IMG/VR virus record: IMGVR_UViG_3300017719_000004
Location: 1-64,000 of that record
Origin: a virus
Taxonomy: Duplodnaviria > Caudoviricetes
DNA: 64,000 nucleotides
Reading direction: 5' to 3' (one strand)
Shown here: piece after piece, positions 8,707 through 64,000 of the stretch
Numbering within the stretch: the stretch's first letter is position 1
Layout of the letters: the number at the start of each line of letters is the position of its first letter
Position numbers and translations under genes: made by a program
The notes under the pieces: generated by a model
Seen by the model: only the letters and a program-made list of their open reading frames with translations
Told to the model about the DNA's origin: nothing
Database searches by the model: none

Positions 8707-9007
8707 TATCGATTAGCTCCAGGTACATTGACTTGAGATCAGCAACTGGTTCAAAGATAGTTTGAACCGAGTTTGGGTTGACAATAAAGGTTGTCTCTTG
8801 CGTGAGTGGTTGCCAAGTAGCAAGAGATACTTGGGATGTATTTTCTGCGGTCTCTCCTGCATCTTCACTCAGCAACATGGTGGGTTGCATGATAACACGA
8901 TATGGATTGTTGAACATATATTGACGAGCCTTGTCTTCAGGATCAATCAACTCTTTGATGTCAGCAATGATTTGATCATTACCGATAATGGCTACTCTAA
9001 CAGACAT
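8693..9007 (-). CDS. Hypothetical protein (104 aa, MSVRVAIIGND...)
   Basis: ATG at 9007 lies downstream of a sigma70-type promoter and GAGG. The longer track start at 9079 runs through a terminator. Confidence 0.75.
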   Translation of the reverse strand: MSVRVAIIGNDQIIADIKELIDPEDKARQYMFNNPYRVIMQPTMLLSEDAGETAENTSQVSLATWQPLTQETTFIVNPNSVQTIFEPVADLKSMYLELIDNVTN

Positions 9008-9029
9008 AGTATGCTTTTTACCTCTTGGT

Positions 9030-9066
9030 ATTATACCACAAAAATGGGGGGTGAACAACCCCCCGA
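9030..9066 (-). promoter_or_regulatory. hsp20 terminator hairpin overlapping a sigma70-like promoter (TTGTTC-N17-TATAAT, extended -10 TGn)
   Basis: GGGGGG..CCCCCC stem followed by ATTTTT; -10 at 9030-9035, -35 at 9053-9058, 17-nt spacer. Confidence 0.65.
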
Positions 9067-9069
9067 TAT

Positions 9070-9504
9070 TTAGAACCAATCCTTGCGTTGATGATGCTCT
9101 GGAACTATCCTAGCTAGACATATTGAAAGGAGTCCATCCTCAAATTCTACACTCTTCACTTCTACATCCTCAGAGAGCGTCCATACCCTCGTAAAGGACC
9201 TCTGTGCTAGTCCCTTATGCTGATAGGTAGTCTCGGTCTCCTTGTCCTCTTTCTGACCCTCTACAAAGAGTTTGCCATCCTGTGTGTAGACAAACAACTC
9301 TGCCTTTTTAAACCCTGCCAGGGCGATCTCTAGCCTGGACTCTACAGAATTTATGGATACTAGGTTGTAGGGAGGATAGTTAGTAGTGGTCTCATGTAGT
9401 GAGTATAAACGATCAAAGTATTCGTTCATACCAATGCTGTTGCGATGAACACGATCCAAAAATTGGTCAATGTTAGACGCACCATACTTAGTAAGGTCGG
9501 TCAT
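9070..9504 (-). CDS. hsp20: Small heat-shock protein Hsp20
   Basis: YPPYNL, LEIALAGF, HKGLAQRSFTR.W.LSEDVEV..V.FEDGLL (alpha-crystallin domain). Confidence 0.96.
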   Translation of the reverse strand: MTDLTKYGASNIDQFLDRVHRNSIGMNEYFDRLYSLHETTTNYPPYNLVSINSVESRLEIALAGFKKAELFVYTQDGKLFVEGQKEDKETETTYQHKGLAQRSFTRVWTLSEDVEVKSVEFEDGLLSICLARIVPEHHQRKDWF

Positions 9505-9567
9505 TTTTAGCTCCTTTAAAAGCGAGTTTATGTTGTGTGGACCCCGAAGGCATCCATCAATATTTAT
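9505..9567 (-). promoter_or_regulatory. hsp20 late promoter (ATAAATA) and 5' leader with CUUCGG hairpin and AAGGAG Shine-Dalgarno
   Basis: Minus strand reads ATAAATA TTGA TGGATGCCTTCGGGGTCCA ... AAAGGAGCTAAAAATG. Confidence 0.7.
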
Positions 9568-9578
9568 TAGACGACATT

Positions 9579-9602
9579 AAAAAACGGGGTAGCGAACCCC
9601 GT
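9579..9602 (-). terminator. Rho-independent terminator after the ParB-like gene
   Basis: ACGGGGT-TCGCT-ACCCCGT followed by a T run. Confidence 0.8.
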
Positions 9603-9619
9603 AATTTTTTATTCGGTTA

Positions 9620-10654
9620 TCAGTAGTCCGAGATATCTACCAATTTAAAAGAATTAATGTTGTGATTGTCATGGATCTGAGGGATCGCTCCAGCAATAGT
9701 GTATGGTGCAGGATCAGCTACTTTGATCTCTACAGCAGACTGTGCCCTATTTACCATAGCAAATGAAGATGTGTAGTAATACTGGAGGTTTACTGCAAAT
9801 TCAGAAATATACCTCCGAGCTTTAGTACCAGTCTTAGCGTTGGTGTAAAGGATGATGGTTGCTGTGGACTTGTTCTTAGAAAAGTGTGGAAGCAAGTGCT
9901 GACACCATGCCCTCATAGCATAAGTTGGATTGTCAACCGATAGGAGAATATAATCTCCCTTTACATAACCGGCTTTTGCCAACCAAGTTTGCCAATCTTC
10001 ACGACTCCTAACAACAGTGATTCCACCAGATGTACCTTCTTCCAAGACATCATCAAGGATTTTGTTGACAATCTTGGTTATGGCACCTCCACGAGGAGAG
10101 AAGAAGCTCTCAGCTTGCAGTTCATTGTAAACGAGGTCTTCTACTGCAGATCTCTCTGGCAAGCATTCTCCAGCATTAACACAAGCAATCCCTGCCATAA
10201 TAAAATCGTTAATGCATACCCCAGTGGATGCAGGACGCTGCTGACAGGCAAGAGAATTGGAAATGTAGCTAGTGATTGGACTACCGTTGTCATCGTATGA
10301 GAAGATAGCAACAATAATCCACCTCTCTCCAGCACGCTTTGCTGCAAGGATACGAGTCCTACCGTCTCTAGGACGATTGTCAGTACCAATACAAGGGGGG
10401 AAATCGTTATAAAGCCATCCATAGTTAATATATGAAACTTGCATTGCTTCAATCCGAGAGGTATTGTTCTGATCATCCCGGACAGCAAGGTTCCAATAAT
10501 ACTCATCCTCTTCATCGACGGTATCGAGATCAAGGAAAGAAAACTTGATGAATGTTGCGTTTTTTTGCTTAGGCTTGGGTAGGTTCTTTAACTGTGGATT
10601 TTCGAGATCCAGGATATCGCCAAAACCTTTTCTGGTGCGTTCTGTGTTAGTCAT
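9620..10654 (-). CDS. Hypothetical 344-aa protein with a ParB/Sulfiredoxin-like N-terminal motif
   Basis: SY..YGW....PPCI.....RDGRTRILAAKRAG..WIIVAIF matches the ParB/Srx 'DG.xR..A' motif. Confidence 0.6.
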   Translation of the reverse strand: MTNTERTRKGFGDILDLENPQLKNLPKPKQKNATFIKFSFLDLDTVDEEDEYYWNLAVRDDQNNTSRIEAMQVSYINYGWLYNDFPPCIGTDNRPRDGRTRILAAKRAGERWIIVAIFSYDDNGSPITSYISNSLACQQRPASTGVCINDFIMAGIACVNAGECLPERSAVEDLVYNELQAESFFSPRGGAITKIVNKILDDVLEEGTSGGITVVRSREDWQTWLAKAGYVKGDYILLSVDNPTYAMRAWCQHLLPHFSKNKSTATIILYTNAKTGTKARRYISEFAVNLQYYYTSSFAMVNRAQSAVEIKVADPAPYTIAGAIPQIHDNHNINSFKLVDISDY

Positions 10655-10726
10655 TAATTCTTTAGATAAAAATCTACGGTTGTACCGTTAGGTGTCTCGA
10701 TAGCGAAAACTGTTGAGACATTATAT

Positions 10727-10805
10727 TTAGTAGGTTCCTATCGCCGCTACTCCTGAACCTACTAAGGGGAGTACCGCAGTCAAGGTGGTCTCCCTCCCTG
10801 ACCTC
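10727..10805 (-). ncRNA. Structured leader RNA: GNRA hairpin followed by interleaved stems (pseudoknot or switch)
   Basis: GUCAGGG..GG-GAGA-CC..CCUUGAC hairpin. UACUCC/GGAGUA (10768-73/10748-53) interleaves with an 11-bp perfect UUAGUAGGUUC/GAACCUACUAA pairing (10755-65/10727-37). Confidence 0.55.
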
Positions 10806-10808
10806 CAT

Positions 10809-10842
10809 ATTATACACCATTAAAAAAGGGGCGTCAAGCCCC
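10809..10842 (-). promoter_or_regulatory. Sigma70-type promoter TTGACG-N17-TATAAT overlapping terminator GGGGC-TTGAC-GCCCC-T6
   Basis: -35 at 10832-10837, -10 at 10809-10814; hairpin 10828-10842 plus T-tract 10822-10827. Confidence 0.75.
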
Positions 10843-10906
10843 CTATCTACTTTGGTAGCGAATCCGTCGTAGAGAGTCGCGCACGAAAGAGCGACGATCT
10901 ATTTAT
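10822..10906 (-). ncRNA. Candidate ~70-75-nt small RNA between late promoter ATAAATA (10900-10906) and a terminator
   Basis: No convincing ORF; GC-rich; GUCGC..UUUC..GCGAC and CUAC-CAAA-GUAG hairpins; bounded by promoter and terminator. Confidence 0.5.
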
Positions 10907-11346
10907 TAACCTTCTTCGCCTTCAACTTTAACCTTACGACCAATGTTATACTTAGTCTCTAAAGCCCAATTCCCTTTATCTTTGTAGGATAAAACTTTAA
11001 TCTGATTCAAAGGAGCAATATCCTCAATCATTTCAGCCACAACTACAGAAATTAATCCCCAATCAGCAAGGAGTTGTGTAATTCTATTACGGCGTTGAAC
11101 ATCATTAACAGTAAGATTTGCTTTCTTGCCATCAAGAGCAAACAATTCTTTAAAGTGAACAATGAAATATCTACCTTGCTTATGTAAGATATGACAAGAC
11201 TGATATAATTTTTTTTCTTTACGAGATGCAACACCGATTCTAGTCAGAGTTTCTCGCACTTTTAAAAAATCGTCAGGTTCTCCTAGGACAACCTCAATCA
11301 TGTTCTCAGGCGACCACTCAACGGTCGGCTCAATAACGACGCTCAT
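10906..11346 (-). CDS. regA: Translational repressor RegA
   Basis: PDDFLKVRETLTRIGVAS..EKKLYQSCHILHKQGRYFIVHFKELFALDGK. Likely start MSVVIEP at 11346; CTAAATA at 11370-11376. Confidence 0.96.
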   Translation of the reverse strand: MSVVIEPTVEWSPENMIEVVLGEPDDFLKVRETLTRIGVASRKEKKLYQSCHILHKQGRYFIVHFKELFALDGKKANLTVNDVQRRNRITQLLADWGLISVVVAEMIEDIAPLNQIKVLSYKDKGNWALETKYNIGRKVKVEGEEG

Positions 11347-11368
11347 GTCACAAAACAAAAACTTTTTA

Positions 11369-12232
11369 TTATTTAGCTAAACTTCTTTTGATGTCCTCTA
11401 ATGCAGGTTTTAAAGTATCGTATACATTTCTATATGCCATCGTATTAATAGTTCTCTTATACCAAAACTCATCTAACTTACAGTCTTTACCTGTAAAATC
11501 TTCATAGATTCCTAGAAAGACACTAAAGATATCCCATTGACTGTGTGGAAAATATTGTGGAGATAGGCAAACAAAGATATGATCATACTCATAATTACCA
11601 TGATCATATTCTTCTGCCGTAGCAAATCCCCAGTCAGCATACTTACCAACATTATTACAAATAAATCTGTTCACAATACTTCTAGTATCATACTCATCTT
11701 TATCATTATTATGAATCCATGTCATAGCCTTCAATTTTCCTAAAGCATGTAAGTATCCTCCCCAACTACCCTCATCAACTTTCCCATAAGTTTTAGCATA
11801 ATGATATTCAATGAGGTGACATGACAAGAACTGCAACCAAGTGTCCTCATCATCATCATCATTTTTTCCTGATTTATCATGATTAGTGAGTTGATCTAAG
11901 TATGCACCTGCCAGAAAATCATCATGGTGATCAATATTAACAATTTCCAGATCTTCTTTGTCAAGAAGTTCTTCGAGAATATAATCATGATCTAGTCCAA
12001 ATGCAACTGTTGCATTTGGATTTGCATACAGAGCCTTAGTAAAAGTCTCAACCATATAATCAAAACACTTTTCATCTACGATCTCTTCTCTACAATTTAG
12101 ATCAGGATAGGTCTTAAAATAATTTTCCCACTTTGTAAAAGCATGCCACTCATCCCAAAGTTCACCATTTTCATTAGGCCATTTCTCAATAGCAGGAAAA
12201 CAATAATCAACATCAATGCTAAGAACTTTCAT
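11369..12232 (-). CDS. UPF0489/arginase-deacetylase-fold-like metalloprotein
   Basis: VLSIDVDY, HDYI, NIDHHDD, DEGSW and FVCLSPQYFP motifs. Confidence 0.6.
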   Translation of the reverse strand: MKVLSIDVDYCFPAIEKWPNENGELWDEWHAFTKWENYFKTYPDLNCREEIVDEKCFDYMVETFTKALYANPNATVAFGLDHDYILEELLDKEDLEIVNIDHHDDFLAGAYLDQLTNHDKSGKNDDDDEDTWLQFLSCHLIEYHYAKTYGKVDEGSWGGYLHALGKLKAMTWIHNNDKDEYDTRSIVNRFICNNVGKYADWGFATAEEYDHGNYEYDHIFVCLSPQYFPHSQWDIFSVFLGIYEDFTGKDCKLDEFWYKRTINTMAYRNVYDTLKPALEDIKRSLAK

Positions 12233-12606
12233 TTGATACCACCCGTATCCAATTTTTTACGAATAAAGTTTATTTGTTCTGAAGTCAGAATCTTTAAAGC
12301 TTGTTGTGCTTTTTCATTACTATAACCGTAATATTTTTTTACTAACTCAAGATCAACAATCTTGTCTTGCCGCAACCAAGGAGAGAATCTTTTCTTCTTC
12401 CTGATGCTATGTAGTAGGAATTGGTACTGCATATCTTTAGATAAATGAGCGTTCTTATTCATCTCATTTGCAAATAAGATTGCATCCAAATGTCCAGAGA
12501 GACAGCGGTTTATGATGTAAGGAGGATACTTTTTAATATCTTCAGGGTCCTCACTCAGATCTTCTTTGGTGAGGTTAATGGAATTAAGCCAGTCTTTTAA
12601 TTCCAT
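12229..12606 (-). CDS. 62: Clamp loader small subunit (T4 gp62)
   Basis: ELKDWLNSIN..K, YPPYIINRCLS, ANEMN, RFSPW, YYGYSNEKA. Confidence 0.95.
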   Translation of the reverse strand: MELKDWLNSINLTKEDLSEDPEDIKKYPPYIINRCLSGHLDAILFANEMNKNAHLSKDMQYQFLLHSIRKKKRFSPWLRQDKIVDLELVKKYYGYSNEKAQQALKILTSEQINFIRKKLDTGGIK

Positions 12607-16874: not shown

Positions 16875-17383
16875 ACCAAATTAAACGAGATAATGACCCT
16901 TTCTTCTATACTATCATGTGGAGGAGCCATGTGCATCAGGTTAGAAGGGAAGATTATTAAATCACCTTCTTTGCATGCAATGGAATTACATGCATGAGTT
17001 CCAGTCTCGTCATTGAACGGAGAAAAGAAAAGAGTGCCTGAGTGATCCTCAGACATTTTAGCATAAAAAACACAAGAGTACCCTAGAGCCCCATGATCAT
17101 GGGGGACATGATAATCTCTTGCGTTATACCTCTGACACCACATATTAGAGATGCCAGTAAATTTATAAAATGATATCTTACAGAATTCTTGTAGGTATGG
17201 TTCTAATATTTTAAAAATATTTTCCTTGTACTTAGCATCAGTCTCTTCAAAATAATCTGTAAATCCAATATGCTTTTCTGCATCATTTGAAGAAGGGATG
17301 GAAAGGAGAATGCTCTCCTTAACCTGTTCCCATTCTCTAATAAAATATTGAGTTACAGAAATCTTAAACAGATCAACCTTCGT
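16871..17383 (-). CDS. 2OG-Fe(II) oxygenase-like protein (start uncertain)
   Basis: WCQRY...YHVPHDHG..GYSCVFY...EGDLIIFPSNLMH...ERVIISFN. Confidence 0.75.
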   Translation of the reverse strand, partial: TKVDLFKISVTQYFIREWEQVKESILLSIPSSNDAEKHIGFTDYFEETDAKYKENIFKILEPYLQEFCKISFYKFTGISNMWCQRYNARDYHVPHDHGALGYSCVFYAKMSEDHSGTLFFSPFNDETGTHACNSIACKEGDLIIFPSNLMHMAPPHDSIEERVIISFNLV

Positions 17384-63300: not shown

Positions 63301-64000
63301 TTCGTATATGTTTGAACATCGTACAAATACAGATCAAATTCTGTAGATGCGTCTTCATACTTCTGATCTCTTAATCCAAAATTGTATACCTTAGCATCAC
63401 CAATTTTATTAGAAGTTCCTGCTACAAGTCTTGTGGAACTCTCAAATGGACCACTAAACAGATCAATTCTGTTGGTAAAAGTTGTAATACCAGTTGTATT
63501 ATTTACAACAAACTTATTTCCCATCTCAAATGGGAATGATTTGCCTTTTACTTCTTCAGTTTCTCTAGGCTTGAAGAAATCAAGTACTGTAGGACCATCA
63601 GTTGATACATCATATCCGTTAACATATGCCTTACCAGCACTGATTTTTAAACACGCAAGATCTTCATCTGGTGTGTTGCCATCAAAAGTAGATTGGTTTG
63701 AAAAATAGACTCCATCATTACCCTGTCTATCGTTAAGACATTCGGTAACATCTAACAGGAACTTATTGACAGTATAGTTACCAGACTCATCAAAAGTTCT
63801 TCCTGCGAGATAATCTCTAATTTTTGAATATTCTGTCTCTTTTTTAATGACTAATACTTCGCCATTACTGACACGAACAACCTCTACAAAATCAGTGTCA
63901 TTAAAATCTGTAATATTTTTCTTAGTAAGAACTAGAGTAATTCTTAATCTATCGGCACCAGGTGCAGCAAAGTTAGAAAATCCCTTGGCATTATCATAAA
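57378..64000 (-). CDS. Giant virion structural protein (DUF4815/VrlC-like), 5' truncated, >2200 aa
   Basis: The frame reads YDNAKGFSNFAAPGADRL at the window edge, in frame with the track ORF; also DFRPR, YLPRIDK, RRYTMRDIG, RFKSGFFVDNF, DPLAQT, GSLFKSQN. Confidence 0.88.
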   Translation of the reverse strand, partial: YDNAKGFSNFAAPGADRLRITLVLTKKNITDFNDTDFVEVVRVSNGEVLVIKKETEYSKIRDYLAGRTFDESGNYTVNKFLLDVTECLNDRQGNDGVYFSNQSTFDGNTPDEDLACLKISAGKAYVNGYDVSTDGPTVLDFFKPRETEEVKGKSFPFEMGNKFVVNNTTGITTFTNRIDLFSGPFESSTRLVAGTSNKIGDAKVYNFGLRDQKYEDASTEFDLYLYDVQTYTNLKLSDNVSATELIKSAFIVGKESGANAFAVAAGAGSSSIQVTQTSGSFRVGEPILINGSEDLPRTIESITSYGINDVFSFAQSGNSFTANKKLNDRIPPRLGAGQVTIAISGAGATVTAPRIDSFQRFKPGDIIRYTDTKNGTQTQFQNVVTSIASDLQSMTVGAMTTVANLFDGGVNGYVGEISLGFQDNSNENASLITVLPDLNVASVDFTGSSLLLSAQVQNESTNSLGQLVLPISSVDLDDTSFAAFDEERYQVQYSNGTIAVIEEDQVTVTSTQVTITGLNASQSGMTVNATVIKSNIKNKVKEFKRCQQVAVTRSTNRRSGSDPNTSVNDGLNHSELYGLRVQDRDISLNEPDATDIIAIYESLDTSAPILDKLNFTSTDDVFTSAIIGENIFGTSTNAIAKVISIDGGNNQISVVYLTKDRFATLEPLSFEESNTTAVLQGISPGKYRDVTSSYLLDKGQRNQYYDYSRVVRNRGAYIPHRQLNIIYNRYDVPSGDTGDVFTVNSYDEERYKKDIPQIGPSRIEAHDVLDFRPRVASYNPASASESPFFYTSRDFVGKPDRILTPNESMTFDYDFYLPRIDKLVLLQDGNFDLIKGKPARQPIPPVVSGKGMEVGTVLLPAYLRDTQEARIYLKDNRRYTMRDIGDLADRVENLEVVTSLNLLEKSAESLQIRDAQGLTRFKSGFFVDNFKTFDFMHPSSPCEIDRDLGELRPLREFDSSALQVAPKDDIPVSQIDFSSNFLLLDDGNTQKTGNLLSLKYQEKEYIKQEFATKVNNINPFHVVAFTGELKLNPSLDNWINTRETQNVIRNTIGITVFNNQVAANFSLTRGGALGGSASVSTRETGRTVQRDDIRSENTFIAEETFDPFCRSRNIEFTAIGLKPFTNFYPFFDNQGGVDIIPKLLEVSSVSGSFQIGETIRGTIGATVFEFRLAAPNHKKGPFNAPTETFTVNPYSPAATLPNGYSQASTVLNIDTTSLAAQAQGAFFGFAPTGMVMRGLTSGAQATVAGVRLVSDDFGDLIGSIFLRDPNQTPTPQVRVRSGNRDFRLTSSQTNANPLPGSTLISHATGRYTATGTTRVVQTDIRITTLETTTITNLSTIDIRGTIPNPPPPPPPVIINNTRVIDRTRTIIRNRTRVINRIRRVRVRRRDPLAQTIVTGPEGAWITSLDLFFASKNQGTTPVRIEVRTVELGTPTLFVIDRAAQATIRPSDITTSADGSVATNIKFDTPFYLDPEESYAIVILSDSDEYEVYCGEMGQKALNAQALPAAKGKIYSQQFAMGSLFKSQNGATWTPTQFEDLTFTLYRADYTAEQGLLTFFNPPIEPNNGLLPPLAFDPIVGVPKKGKLGIVTTSDSGLIGTVFTPGRKVSEQTSTFRHGYIETKGGPVLGTVGILTGGSNYGTPSNPITTYNINGDGDGLTLNATVGAGISAITAVSIASSGRGYKVGDVVGLVTADVGGSGSGVRIGINSLGGIDTLYLTDVQAQTFDVAAGNEVTYNHAAGSVIATGLDIVSFDATGSVYTGEYFKVSHRNHGMHSSLNKVILSDVESDVVPTEITVDILSNETAISVASTSQFNTFEGAVVSAANTGYAFINSEILSYTSVGISSLGGVVRGVDSTNALNHLKNDSIQKYEYNGISLRRVNAEHDVSSVLRGIDDYYLKIDRGSSRSVDDTSNNIPQVSFKEEAAGGGQNVYASKNIQFDAVRPLLDAATFGPTDFISLQMRSVTGTSPDGSETSFIDNGFEDLNLNRINTLETTRILASRTNESARLGSLPRNKSFSFTVELANSGDSFNSPTVNLEGANALFYENRLNNPISDYRTDPRVKSRFNDPHASYYMSQPIYTKNPATSIKVIFEARRPIECEFRVLYSIMKTDSSEVTPDFELFPGFRNLLDTDGDGIGDQVIDPTQNDGMSDSFVSADDTQYREYTYSVDDLPSFNGLQIKIVFTGTNQAKHPVIKNLRAIAVA

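Follow-up and report, generated by a model that had tools for sequence, protein, structure and literature searches.

A covarying pseudoknot RNA family of cyanophages in a mosaic-like spacer downstream of regA

What fills a long and highly structured spacer in a phage genome that otherwise leaves almost no room between genes? The spacer in question spans 251 nt between regA, the gene of a translational repressor, and an open reading frame (ORF) of 344 codons, in a fragment of a T4-like cyanomyovirus: positions 1 to 64,000 of IMG/VR record IMGVR_UViG_3300017719_000004, hereafter the window. In a crude ORF map the window is 96% coding with a median gap of 0, and the spacer ranks third in size among 67 gaps. 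A preliminary description, made from the letters alone, had proposed a self-contained module here, consisting of a small RNA, a structured leader and a protein resembling ParB and sulfiredoxin (ParB/Srx), placed behind RegA. As judged from comparative sequence analysis, the spacer instead appears to be a mosaic of independently conserved units joined head to tail, not one module. One unit, which we call element A (10729-10802, minus strand), is a GNRA-capped hairpin followed by an H-type pseudoknot, and it belongs to an RNA family found in cyanophages. Another, element B (10845-10906, minus strand), adjoins regA.

Every sequence feature listed in the preliminary description is present on the minus strand at 10655-10905, and its view that the spacer holds structured non-coding elements held up. 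The 251-nt spacer folds at −80.8 kcal/mol (z = −3.31), with 1 of 200 shuffled sequences equally low, and most of its pieces are conserved in other phages. Its promoter and terminator motifs align with the structural parts, at positions kept in relatives. Covariance-model searches with Rfam 15 gave no match at the gathering score anywhere in the window, spacer included; at E ≤ 10, region 10500-11050 yielded just the eukaryotic families SNORD39 (E 0.31) and HOTAIRM1_5 (E 8.2), at chance level. When 10600-10960 was compared with 50,697 phage records by sensitive blastn, 49 records matched, and in none did the match exceed 80% of the query. The first ~85 nt past regA resemble the region past regA in S-SM2 and correspond to element B. 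A separate 80-nt stretch resembles unannotated intergenic DNA of ACG-2014f genomes and corresponds to element A; 53 nt of it match the siphovirus S-SKS1 at 94%.

Element A starts 6 nt past a −10 box, with all of its parts on the minus strand. Its first hairpin, P1 (10802-10779), is closed by G10802-C10779 and carries the GNRA loop GAGA (10792-10789). The core (10729-10778) is made up of an invariant UGCGG linker and the pseudoknot. Helix S1 pairs UACUCC (10773-10768) with GGAGUA (10753-10748), helix S2 pairs AGUAGGUUC (10763-10755) with GAACCUACU (10737-10729), and the invariant 10-nt loop GCGGCGAUAG occupies 10738-10747. One nucleotide lies between the 5′ strand of S2 and the 3′ strand of S1. 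Three cultured homologues share this layout of sigma70-type promoter, variable P1, invariant CUGCGGU and two interleaved helices. Model R1 matches the window at 10728-10784 with 75.4 bits (E 3e-17).

What had been described as an interleaved double stem is a true pseudoknot, with its strands in the order a, b, a′, b′ and covariation in both helices. S1, for instance, reads UACUCC/GGAGUA in the window, UGCUCC/GGAGCA in S-SKS1 and UGAUCC/GGGUUA in ACG-2014f. In an alignment of 122 distinct sequences (A3), the 15 pairs were formed in 99.5% of cells, compared with 82.3% after shuffling, and none of 500 shuffles reached the observed value; sliding the partners by 1–3 columns left 17–50% paired. Pairing was 99.7% for S1 and 99.4% for S2. 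Double-sided changes occurred in 11 of the 15 pairs, five of six in S1 and six of nine in S2, and the covariation picture was unchanged in a 90-sequence alignment. L1 of the pseudoknot is longer in the alignment where S2 has 9 bp instead of 8 bp. Many of the pairs are G-U (pair 13/37 is G-U in 42 of 122 sequences), which fixes the strand. P1 varies too much in length to be counted column by column, but a contiguous stem of at least 5 bp anchored at the C of CUGCGGU was present in 126 of 142 unique upstream regions, versus 25 of 142 when shuffled. Its loops are frequently GAAA or GAGA, and locus L292 shows compensatory differences in P1. About 30 nucleotides, largely unpaired, are invariant in the ~55-nt core. 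We are highly confident of the identity and structure of element A.

The records searched point to a cyanophage-restricted RNA family, present as a single copy per phage record. Scanning IMG/VR for a conserved 15-mer gave at least 120 matches; among the 120 listed, 108 carry the full motif, eight lack CUGCGG nearby and four GC-rich coding matches were dropped by eye. A reciprocal scan in which the last 10 nt were left free also returned at least 120 matches. Over all collected loci the same 10-nt tail was found in 110 of 165 matches, the remainder having one or two changes. In blastn searches that matched 49, 57 and 6 phage records, every record had element A at a single place, and by model R1 there is one copy in the window's own 82.6-kb record. 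Carriers among the 50,697 phage records are phages of Synechococcus or Prochlorococcus, together with two unannotated "Marine virus" records. The Synechococcus carriers (57 records) are ACG-2014f, S-SM2, S-SKS1, Bellamy, S-B05, S-B43, RB11-B, S-H68, S-SCSM2R and SynMITS9220M01; the Prochlorococcus carriers are P-SSM2 and P-SSM5. An exact-pattern scan of 185,579 species-representative bacterial and archaeal genomes, host genomes being checked by this pattern alone and not by the covariance model, gave 28 matches, which by a rough estimate is about the chance expectation, with one true copy.

That copy lies on an 832-bp contig (L143) of a metagenome-assembled genome labelled Acidimicrobiales. 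The contig holds element A, a tRNA and a gene of the type beginning MSLIEKFK, and looks like cyanophage DNA binned into a bacterial assembly.

Where would the RNA start? Of 142 upstream regions, 127 have a −10-like hexamer no more than 20 nt from P1, and in 99 it stands exactly 6 nt before P1. Among the 129 regions with a −10, a −35 hexamer with at least five of six matches stands at the 16–18-nt spacing in 75, versus none in a register shifted by 10 nt; the controls here are spacing and −35 register only, the chance rate of −10-like hexamers being uncontrolled. From the −10 and −35 spacing we infer that the RNA begins at the first G of P1. Immediately ahead of the −10, 23 of the 129 regions have a run of Ts, which makes a terminator/promoter composite. 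In some loci P1 overlaps the end of a conserved 157-aa ORF.

Downstream, the commonest neighbor is a tRNA gene. A same-strand tRNA begins 6–11 nt past the 15-mer, mostly 7–8 nt and ∼4 nt past S2, in 72 of 111 loci, 62 of them with tRNA-Arg(tct) and 10 with tRNA-Pro(tgg); in two of the 111 the downstream DNA is too short to judge. Upstream, within the collected DNA, a tRNA on the same strand is absent from 86 of the 111. About a third of loci, the window among them, have an ORF 20–80 nt past element A. These ORFs are varied: DUF6561, gp32-like, purM, purH-like, deformylase-like, small membrane proteins and a weakly YefM-like one. ARAGORN found no tRNA in the window. Loci of the S-SKS1 type have another promoter directly past element A. 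The order in ACG-2014f is promoter, element A, tRNA-Arg, manA RNA and tRNA. In P-SSM2 the manA RNA takes the slot behind the terminator/promoter that follows regA, and element A lies one gene further on, before purM.

Small genes recur past element A or its tRNA, as in L005, L042 and L060 (∼96–100 nt past the core) and in L014, L043, L053 and L167. They include a DUF7212 protein (Pfam E 3.3e-25), a 55–57-aa protein with a weak match to the Phd/YefM antitoxin family (E 0.037, below the cut-off) and a 71–74-aa protein that begins MALTEKFK and has no Pfam family. Inside a phage tRNA cluster at L037 (4062-4147) a tRNA-Sec model matched at threshold (47.3 bits, gathering score 47); this may be a tRNA with a long variable arm rather than tRNA-Sec.

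Element B is built differently and keeps different company. The upstream gene is regA (10906-11358, minus strand; PF01818 Translat_reg, E 5.4e-45), and its stop codon (10908-10906) lies inside a T4-type late-promoter-like motif, AATAAATA (10900-10907), with which element B starts and whose late activity is predicted by resemblance. For T4-type late promoters we took as reference the consensus octamer TATAAATA, ∼6–7 nt before the transcript start. Then come a hairpin (10876-10895) with the 5-bp stem GUCGC/GCGAC and loop UCUUUCGUGC, and a tail (10845-10875) with conserved CGGA(A/U); the terminator at 10822-10844 adjoins. All lie on the minus strand. The sequence TTCGTGCG occurs shortly past regA in 37 of 80 IMG/VR loci that encode RegA relatives (cyanomyovirus regA loci). 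An alignment of 37 element-B sequences (A4) comprises the window, S-SM2 and 35 loci, and TAAATA is invariant in all 37. It is kept even in five loci that have a gene between the motif and regA (L241, L253, L264, L265 and L280), so it is not mere stop-codon context. The distance from TAAATA to the hairpin is 4–5 nt in 32 of the 37. The hairpin loop UUUCGUGC is conserved, and around it a contiguous stem of at least 5 bp forms in 35 of 37 sequences, drawn from 11 distinct stems such as GAGACC/GGUCUC, GCGAUC/GGUCGC and GUGCC/GGCAC. In the tail, G56, G57 and A58 are invariant and C55 and A59 are conserved at 90% or more. From the start of the stem to the end of the T-run is 56–83 nt. These features suggest that element B is either a late small RNA of ∼70–80 nt or a structured 3′ end of the regA message.

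A further pairing between the element-B loop and tail (UUUCGU/ACGAAA), which would make a pseudoknot, was dropped by eye, without a formal count; variants with an ACAAAA tail keep the same loop.

The placement behind RegA that the preliminary description had proposed divides in two. It stands for element B, with its 37 of 80 loci, and does not hold for the pseudoknot RNA: element A lies within 1.3 kb downstream of regA in just 5 of the 80.

Between the two elements is a composite of terminator and promoter. A terminator scan identified an intrinsic-terminator-like hairpin (10844-10826) followed by T6 (whole feature 10822-10844, minus strand). The −35 hexamer TTGACG (10837-10832) occupies part of the loop and the 3′ stem of this terminator, and the −10 hexamer TATAAT (10814-10809) of a sigma70-type, presumably early, promoter stands 17 nt past it; together they fit 11 of 12 consensus positions. 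Around the spacer, in 9000-12500, terminator-like sites numbered 9 against 1.8 expected, and promoter-like sites were not enriched overall (12 against 10.4 expected). The same composite is found behind regA in P-SSM2 and in several other regA loci. What follows regA, element B and the terminator varies between relatives. The cargo is element A with the 344-aa gene in the window, L108 and L291-L293; the 344-aa gene alone, behind a TTATAAATA motif, in L226, L294 and L295; hsp20 with its own conserved leader in S-SM2 and many others; element A with another gene in L209; and manA with purL in P-SSM2.

Composite terminator/early-promoter cassettes of T4-like phages, the promoter early stem-loops (PeSLs), were reportedly described by Arbiol in 2010. 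The composite at 10844-10809 is PeSL-like: a stem-loop with a U-run is joined directly to a near-consensus sigma70-like promoter, and genes have been inserted or replaced behind it in related genomes. Its terminator activity, early-promoter activity and role in recombination are predictions from this likeness. It differs in that the −35 is inside the terminator loop, and in that a PeSL is a regulatory DNA cassette while elements A and B are structured RNAs flanking the composite. According to the available text of PMC4122927 (Comeau 2014), in which the word cyanophage does not occur, PeSLs were described in coliphage, vibriophage and similar pairs and are proposed recombination substrates; the part of PMC4503421 at hand reports few in S-PM2. 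The spacer past regA in T4, before gene 43, is also comparable: a terminator hairpin comes first, TATAAT next, and the transcript that starts there opens with a hairpin. We take that T4 hairpin to be the gp43 translational operator. It differs in overlapping the ribosome-binding region of gene 43, a gene that is not adjacent in the window, and it has no sequence in common with either element A or element B.

On the other side of element A is the 344-aa ORF (9620-10654, minus strand, ATG at 10654), called ParB-like in the preliminary description. It has a late-promoter motif and leader hairpin of its own, independent of element A. A second late-promoter-like motif, CTAAATA (10730-10724), overlaps the 3′ strand of S2, its activity again being predicted; a leader hairpin UGUCUC...GAGACA follows (10720-10693), and just before the start codon stands a weak terminator-like hairpin ACGGU/ACCGU (10688-10676) with T5 (10668-10688), all on the minus strand. 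The leader hairpin is kept in L294, L295 and L226 with one wobble-compatible change (GAGGCA). In L294 and L295, which lack element A, TTATAAATA stands at the same distance before the leader hairpin as CTAAATA does in the window, so the second late promoter of the preliminary description is conserved in position. The ACGGU/ACCGU hairpin is not conserved in these two loci, where a different small hairpin is found.

The distribution of this gene bears directly on the proposed module. Eight IMG/VR loci encode a relative of the 344-aa protein, and model R1 matches three of them, all with at least 93% protein identity. The window's close relatives L108 and L291-L293 (93–99% protein identity) keep the whole arrangement. 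At 68–69% identity, L294 and L295 keep regA, element B, the terminator and the leader, and element A is absent; L296-L298 lack regA, element B, terminator, leader and element A alike. Element A thus accompanies the ParB-like gene only in the window's close lineage.

The label ParB-like itself was not confirmed by sequence searches of Pfam, PHROGs or PDB. The 344-aa protein gave no PF02195 row at E ≤ 0.01, no Pfam match above cut-off, no PHROG and no PDB match by sequence or profile, and none of its 22 homologues has a Pfam domain. Its AlphaFold2 model (mean pLDDT, the predicted local distance difference test, of 50.7) is too poor for a fold search. The nearest ESM Atlas clusters hold viral proteins with PF02195 ParB_N or named ParB/sulfiredoxin, at a score of 0.94 and with just 148 shared features, and a stretch of the protein, DGRTRILAAKRAG, resembles what we take to be a ParB motif. 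The ParB/Srx assignment is a lead only.

Past the 344-aa ORF the minus-strand order, which began with gp62-side genes and regA, continues with hsp20 (9070-9504) and two DUF6561 genes. Separating hsp20 from the 344-aa ORF is a terminator-like hairpin (ACGGGG...CCCCGU, 9584-9602) that is bidirectional, with a T-run on each strand. The hsp20 leader (9505-9570, minus strand) has a TAAATA motif, a hairpin GGAUGCC-loop-GGGUCC and then ACACAA...CUCGCU...AAGGAG before the AUG. It has no Rfam match in the window and is conserved in many regA loci, e.g. L224, L229, L243 and L003 (2600-2665). Its hairpin loop swaps stable tetraloops, UUCG in the window (9539-9555) and GAAA, GUAA or AACG elsewhere. Two other large non-coding gaps in the crude ORF map, 16875-17372 (498 nt) and 63525-63846 (322 nt), had no Rfam match at the gathering score. 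A search of sequencing runs listed six runs, three of them with 0.11–0.13 of the sampled words, the matches all being contigs; contigs from four runs cover 9663-10170 and 10991-11241, and none covers 10210-10941.

Is element A a known RNA? Eight member loci compared with Rfam at E ≤ 5 gave nothing on element A except chance-level rows. It matched neither the manA (RF01745) nor the wcaG (RF01761) model, at the gathering score or at E ≤ 10 or 5, and no glnA RNA (RF01739) row appeared in Rfam scans of the window, the spacer or the member loci. The Rfam models did recover true manA and wcaG copies beside element A, never element A itself. Named non-coding RNAs of T4-like cyanophages are CfrI, PhotoRC-II, manA, wcaG and glnA in the available part of PMC9964418. 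Neither element A nor B is described in the open-access full text searched, nor in the part of PMC3037559 available. Either may already be within the catalogue of Fremin et al. 2023 (PMC10690425), the accessible text of which gives 10,006 unnamed candidate RNAs from IMG/VR and states that one, DNAVirus_2961, sometimes overlaps tRNA-Arg.

The closest parallels are manA and wcaG, like element A orphan structured RNAs of T4-like cyanophages and marine metagenomes, with function unknown for all three. In the text of PMC2864571 available to us both are restricted to marine and cyanophage sequence. manA occupies the genomic neighborhoods of element A (P-SSM2, ACG-2014f and L067), and wcaG follows element A on its strand at a distance of 0.3–4.5 kb in 5 of 10 long loci, as it also does in S-SM2 and S-SKS1. 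Element A differs in size, at ∼75 nt against 192 model positions for manA and 98 for wcaG, and in being mostly fused to a tRNA instead of an ORF. In L067 (1-151) manA abuts element A upstream of a gp32-like gene. In the element A operon of ACG-2014f (L001 2587-2945) manA sits between two tRNA genes, a position that suggests a purely cis-regulatory role in a 5′ untranslated region is hard to reconcile with this copy.

A looser parallel is offered by rnaC and rnaD of T4 (species 1 and 2), phage small RNAs of unknown function in a tRNA operon next to tRNA-Arg (NC_000866 annotation). They differ in lying 3′ of tRNA-Arg, element A lying 5′, and in having 119–139 nt and no known pseudoknot. Homology was considered and rejected: the best match of model R1 in the T4 tRNA region had E 0.41 and fell on a tRNA. 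rnaC and rnaD are presumably released by tRNA-processing enzymes.

How might element A work? The account we favor, and regard as reasonably probable when taken whole, is that of a mosaic spacer in which element A is an early, stable small RNA. Host RNA polymerase would start early in infection at the first G of P1, and the RNA would fold into its compact pseudoknot. In most phages a cut by RNase P at the tRNA 4 nt further on would release element A as a stable small RNA; elsewhere a terminator or further processing would free it, and in the window phage it would head the early message of the ParB-like gene. Its partner would then be a conserved protein or RNA, of the phage or of its picocyanobacterial host, on which it would act through those nucleotides that are invariant and single-stranded. 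This trans-acting mechanism is a tentative part of the account, to which we give somewhat less than even credence.

Several points weigh against this account. Transcript starts, ends, stability, timing, processing and trans action are all inferred from sequence. The ORF 20–80 nt past element A, in the window and about a third of loci, fits a cis-acting leader equally well. Some 30 invariant nucleotides in a core of ∼55 nt are less usual for a small RNA that binds protein than for an RNA that is catalytic or binds a ligand. The neighboring manA and wcaG are themselves proposed as riboswitch candidates, according to the portion of PMC2864571 at hand. The family was collected by two IMG/VR scans with exact conserved words, which leave divergent members and the limits of conservation unsampled; and its sequences are related, so that the shuffle statistics overstate independence, the count of distinct pair types being less affected.

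The alternatives differ in how they treat these same facts. A small RNA, leader and ParB/Srx-like protein functionally tied to each other and to RegA would explain why the whole arrangement is kept in the window, L108 and L291-L293, and transcripts from its early and its late promoter motifs would differ in structure at the 5′ end. Such a tie is largely refuted by the distribution, and we consider it highly improbable: element A is at only three of the eight ParB-like loci in IMG/VR, L294 and L295 do without it, L296-L298 do without any of the units, more than 160 copies lie elsewhere, mostly before tRNA genes, and few regA loci have one nearby. Should element A be read as DNA, for instance as a recombination hotspot of the PeSL type, an origin or a protein-binding site? 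It does move between contexts along with the terminator/promoter composite, and PeSLs are proposed recombination substrates in the text available from PMC4122927. This reading nevertheless strikes us as the least plausible of all, as compensatory changes preserve the helices, as do many G-U pairs, which would read as A-C mismatches on the opposite strand, the sequence varies just where pairing permits, and orientation relative to the promoter is constant. Little more probable is a small self-cleaving or processing ribozyme that matures the tRNA precursor. HDV-like (hepatitis delta virus-like) ribozymes have reportedly been found next to phage tRNAs, and the very high conservation of a small pseudoknot and the tight spacing to the tRNA 5′ end, 6–11 nt from the 15-mer, would suit one. 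However, no ribozyme family appeared in the Rfam scans at E ≤ 10 or 5; the strand order a, b, a′, b′ with 1 nt between b and a′ does not give the nested double pseudoknot of HDV-like ribozymes, theta included; the RNA would start at P1 and have no 5′ leader to remove; tRNA 5′ ends are already made by host RNase P; and a third of copies have no nearby tRNA.

Two readings in cis deserve more weight, though we think each of them unlikely. Early transcripts could carry element A in their 5′ leader as a riboswitch-like aptamer that senses in cis, comparable to the riboswitch candidates manA and wcaG. The pseudoknot is compact, and ∼30 nucleotides, most of them unpaired, are invariant; element A always stands at the predicted 5′ end of the transcript, and shares genomic slots with manA, which in P-SSM2 is found where the window has element A; its mix of downstream ORFs (purM, purH-like, gp32-like, DUF6561) resembles that of manA as given in the available text of PMC2864571. 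Yet 72 of 111 copies precede a tRNA, not an ORF, and no conserved expression platform was seen: alternative pairing and a regular terminator are both absent, and the AU-rich linker that leads to the start codon varies. There is also one copy per genome, and the downstream genes have no common pathway. Alternatively, and with much the same low probability, element A could act on its own transcript or polymerase, either as a 5′ protective fold against 5′-end-dependent RNases or as an antiterminator through the tRNA cluster in the manner of put. The put RNA of HK022 makes RNA polymerase resistant to termination. Element A lies exactly at the predicted +1 with its 5′ G paired, it heads long untranslated tRNA arrays (recall the 86 of 111 loci with no same-strand upstream tRNA), and in the window a terminator-like hairpin separates it from the next gene. 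Protection, however, needs no invariant pseudoknot and would be expected at many early promoters, not once per genome. For antitermination, no terminators are evident inside the tRNA arrays and no similarity to any Rfam antiterminator RNA was found; and S-SKS1-type loci have nothing before the next promoter. A bolder interpretation, which we hold as possible and short of likely, is that element A, instead of being one more orphan small RNA, represents a compact pseudoknot RNA of a new functional class, which binds a ligand, is catalytic, or targets RNA polymerase or an RNase, and is made from the first nucleotide of an early transcript that heads tRNA operons. Element B would in that case be another small RNA, likewise new but made late and linked to the translational repressor RegA.

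T4-like cyanophages kill a large share of marine picocyanobacteria, yet the list of non-coding RNAs known from them is short. Element A appears to add an abundant member to it, and its size and conservation make it tractable for structure probing, for ligand or partner screens and for phage genetics in Synechococcus and Prochlorococcus systems. Element B would be a first conserved RNA feature physically tied to regA in cyanomyoviruses, and the terminator/promoter composites, if they act as predicted, would extend the PeSL picture of modular shuffling to cyanophages. The manA copy between the tRNAs of one operon raises the question of whether cyanophage RNAs regarded as cis-regulatory are in fact excised as stand-alone RNAs.

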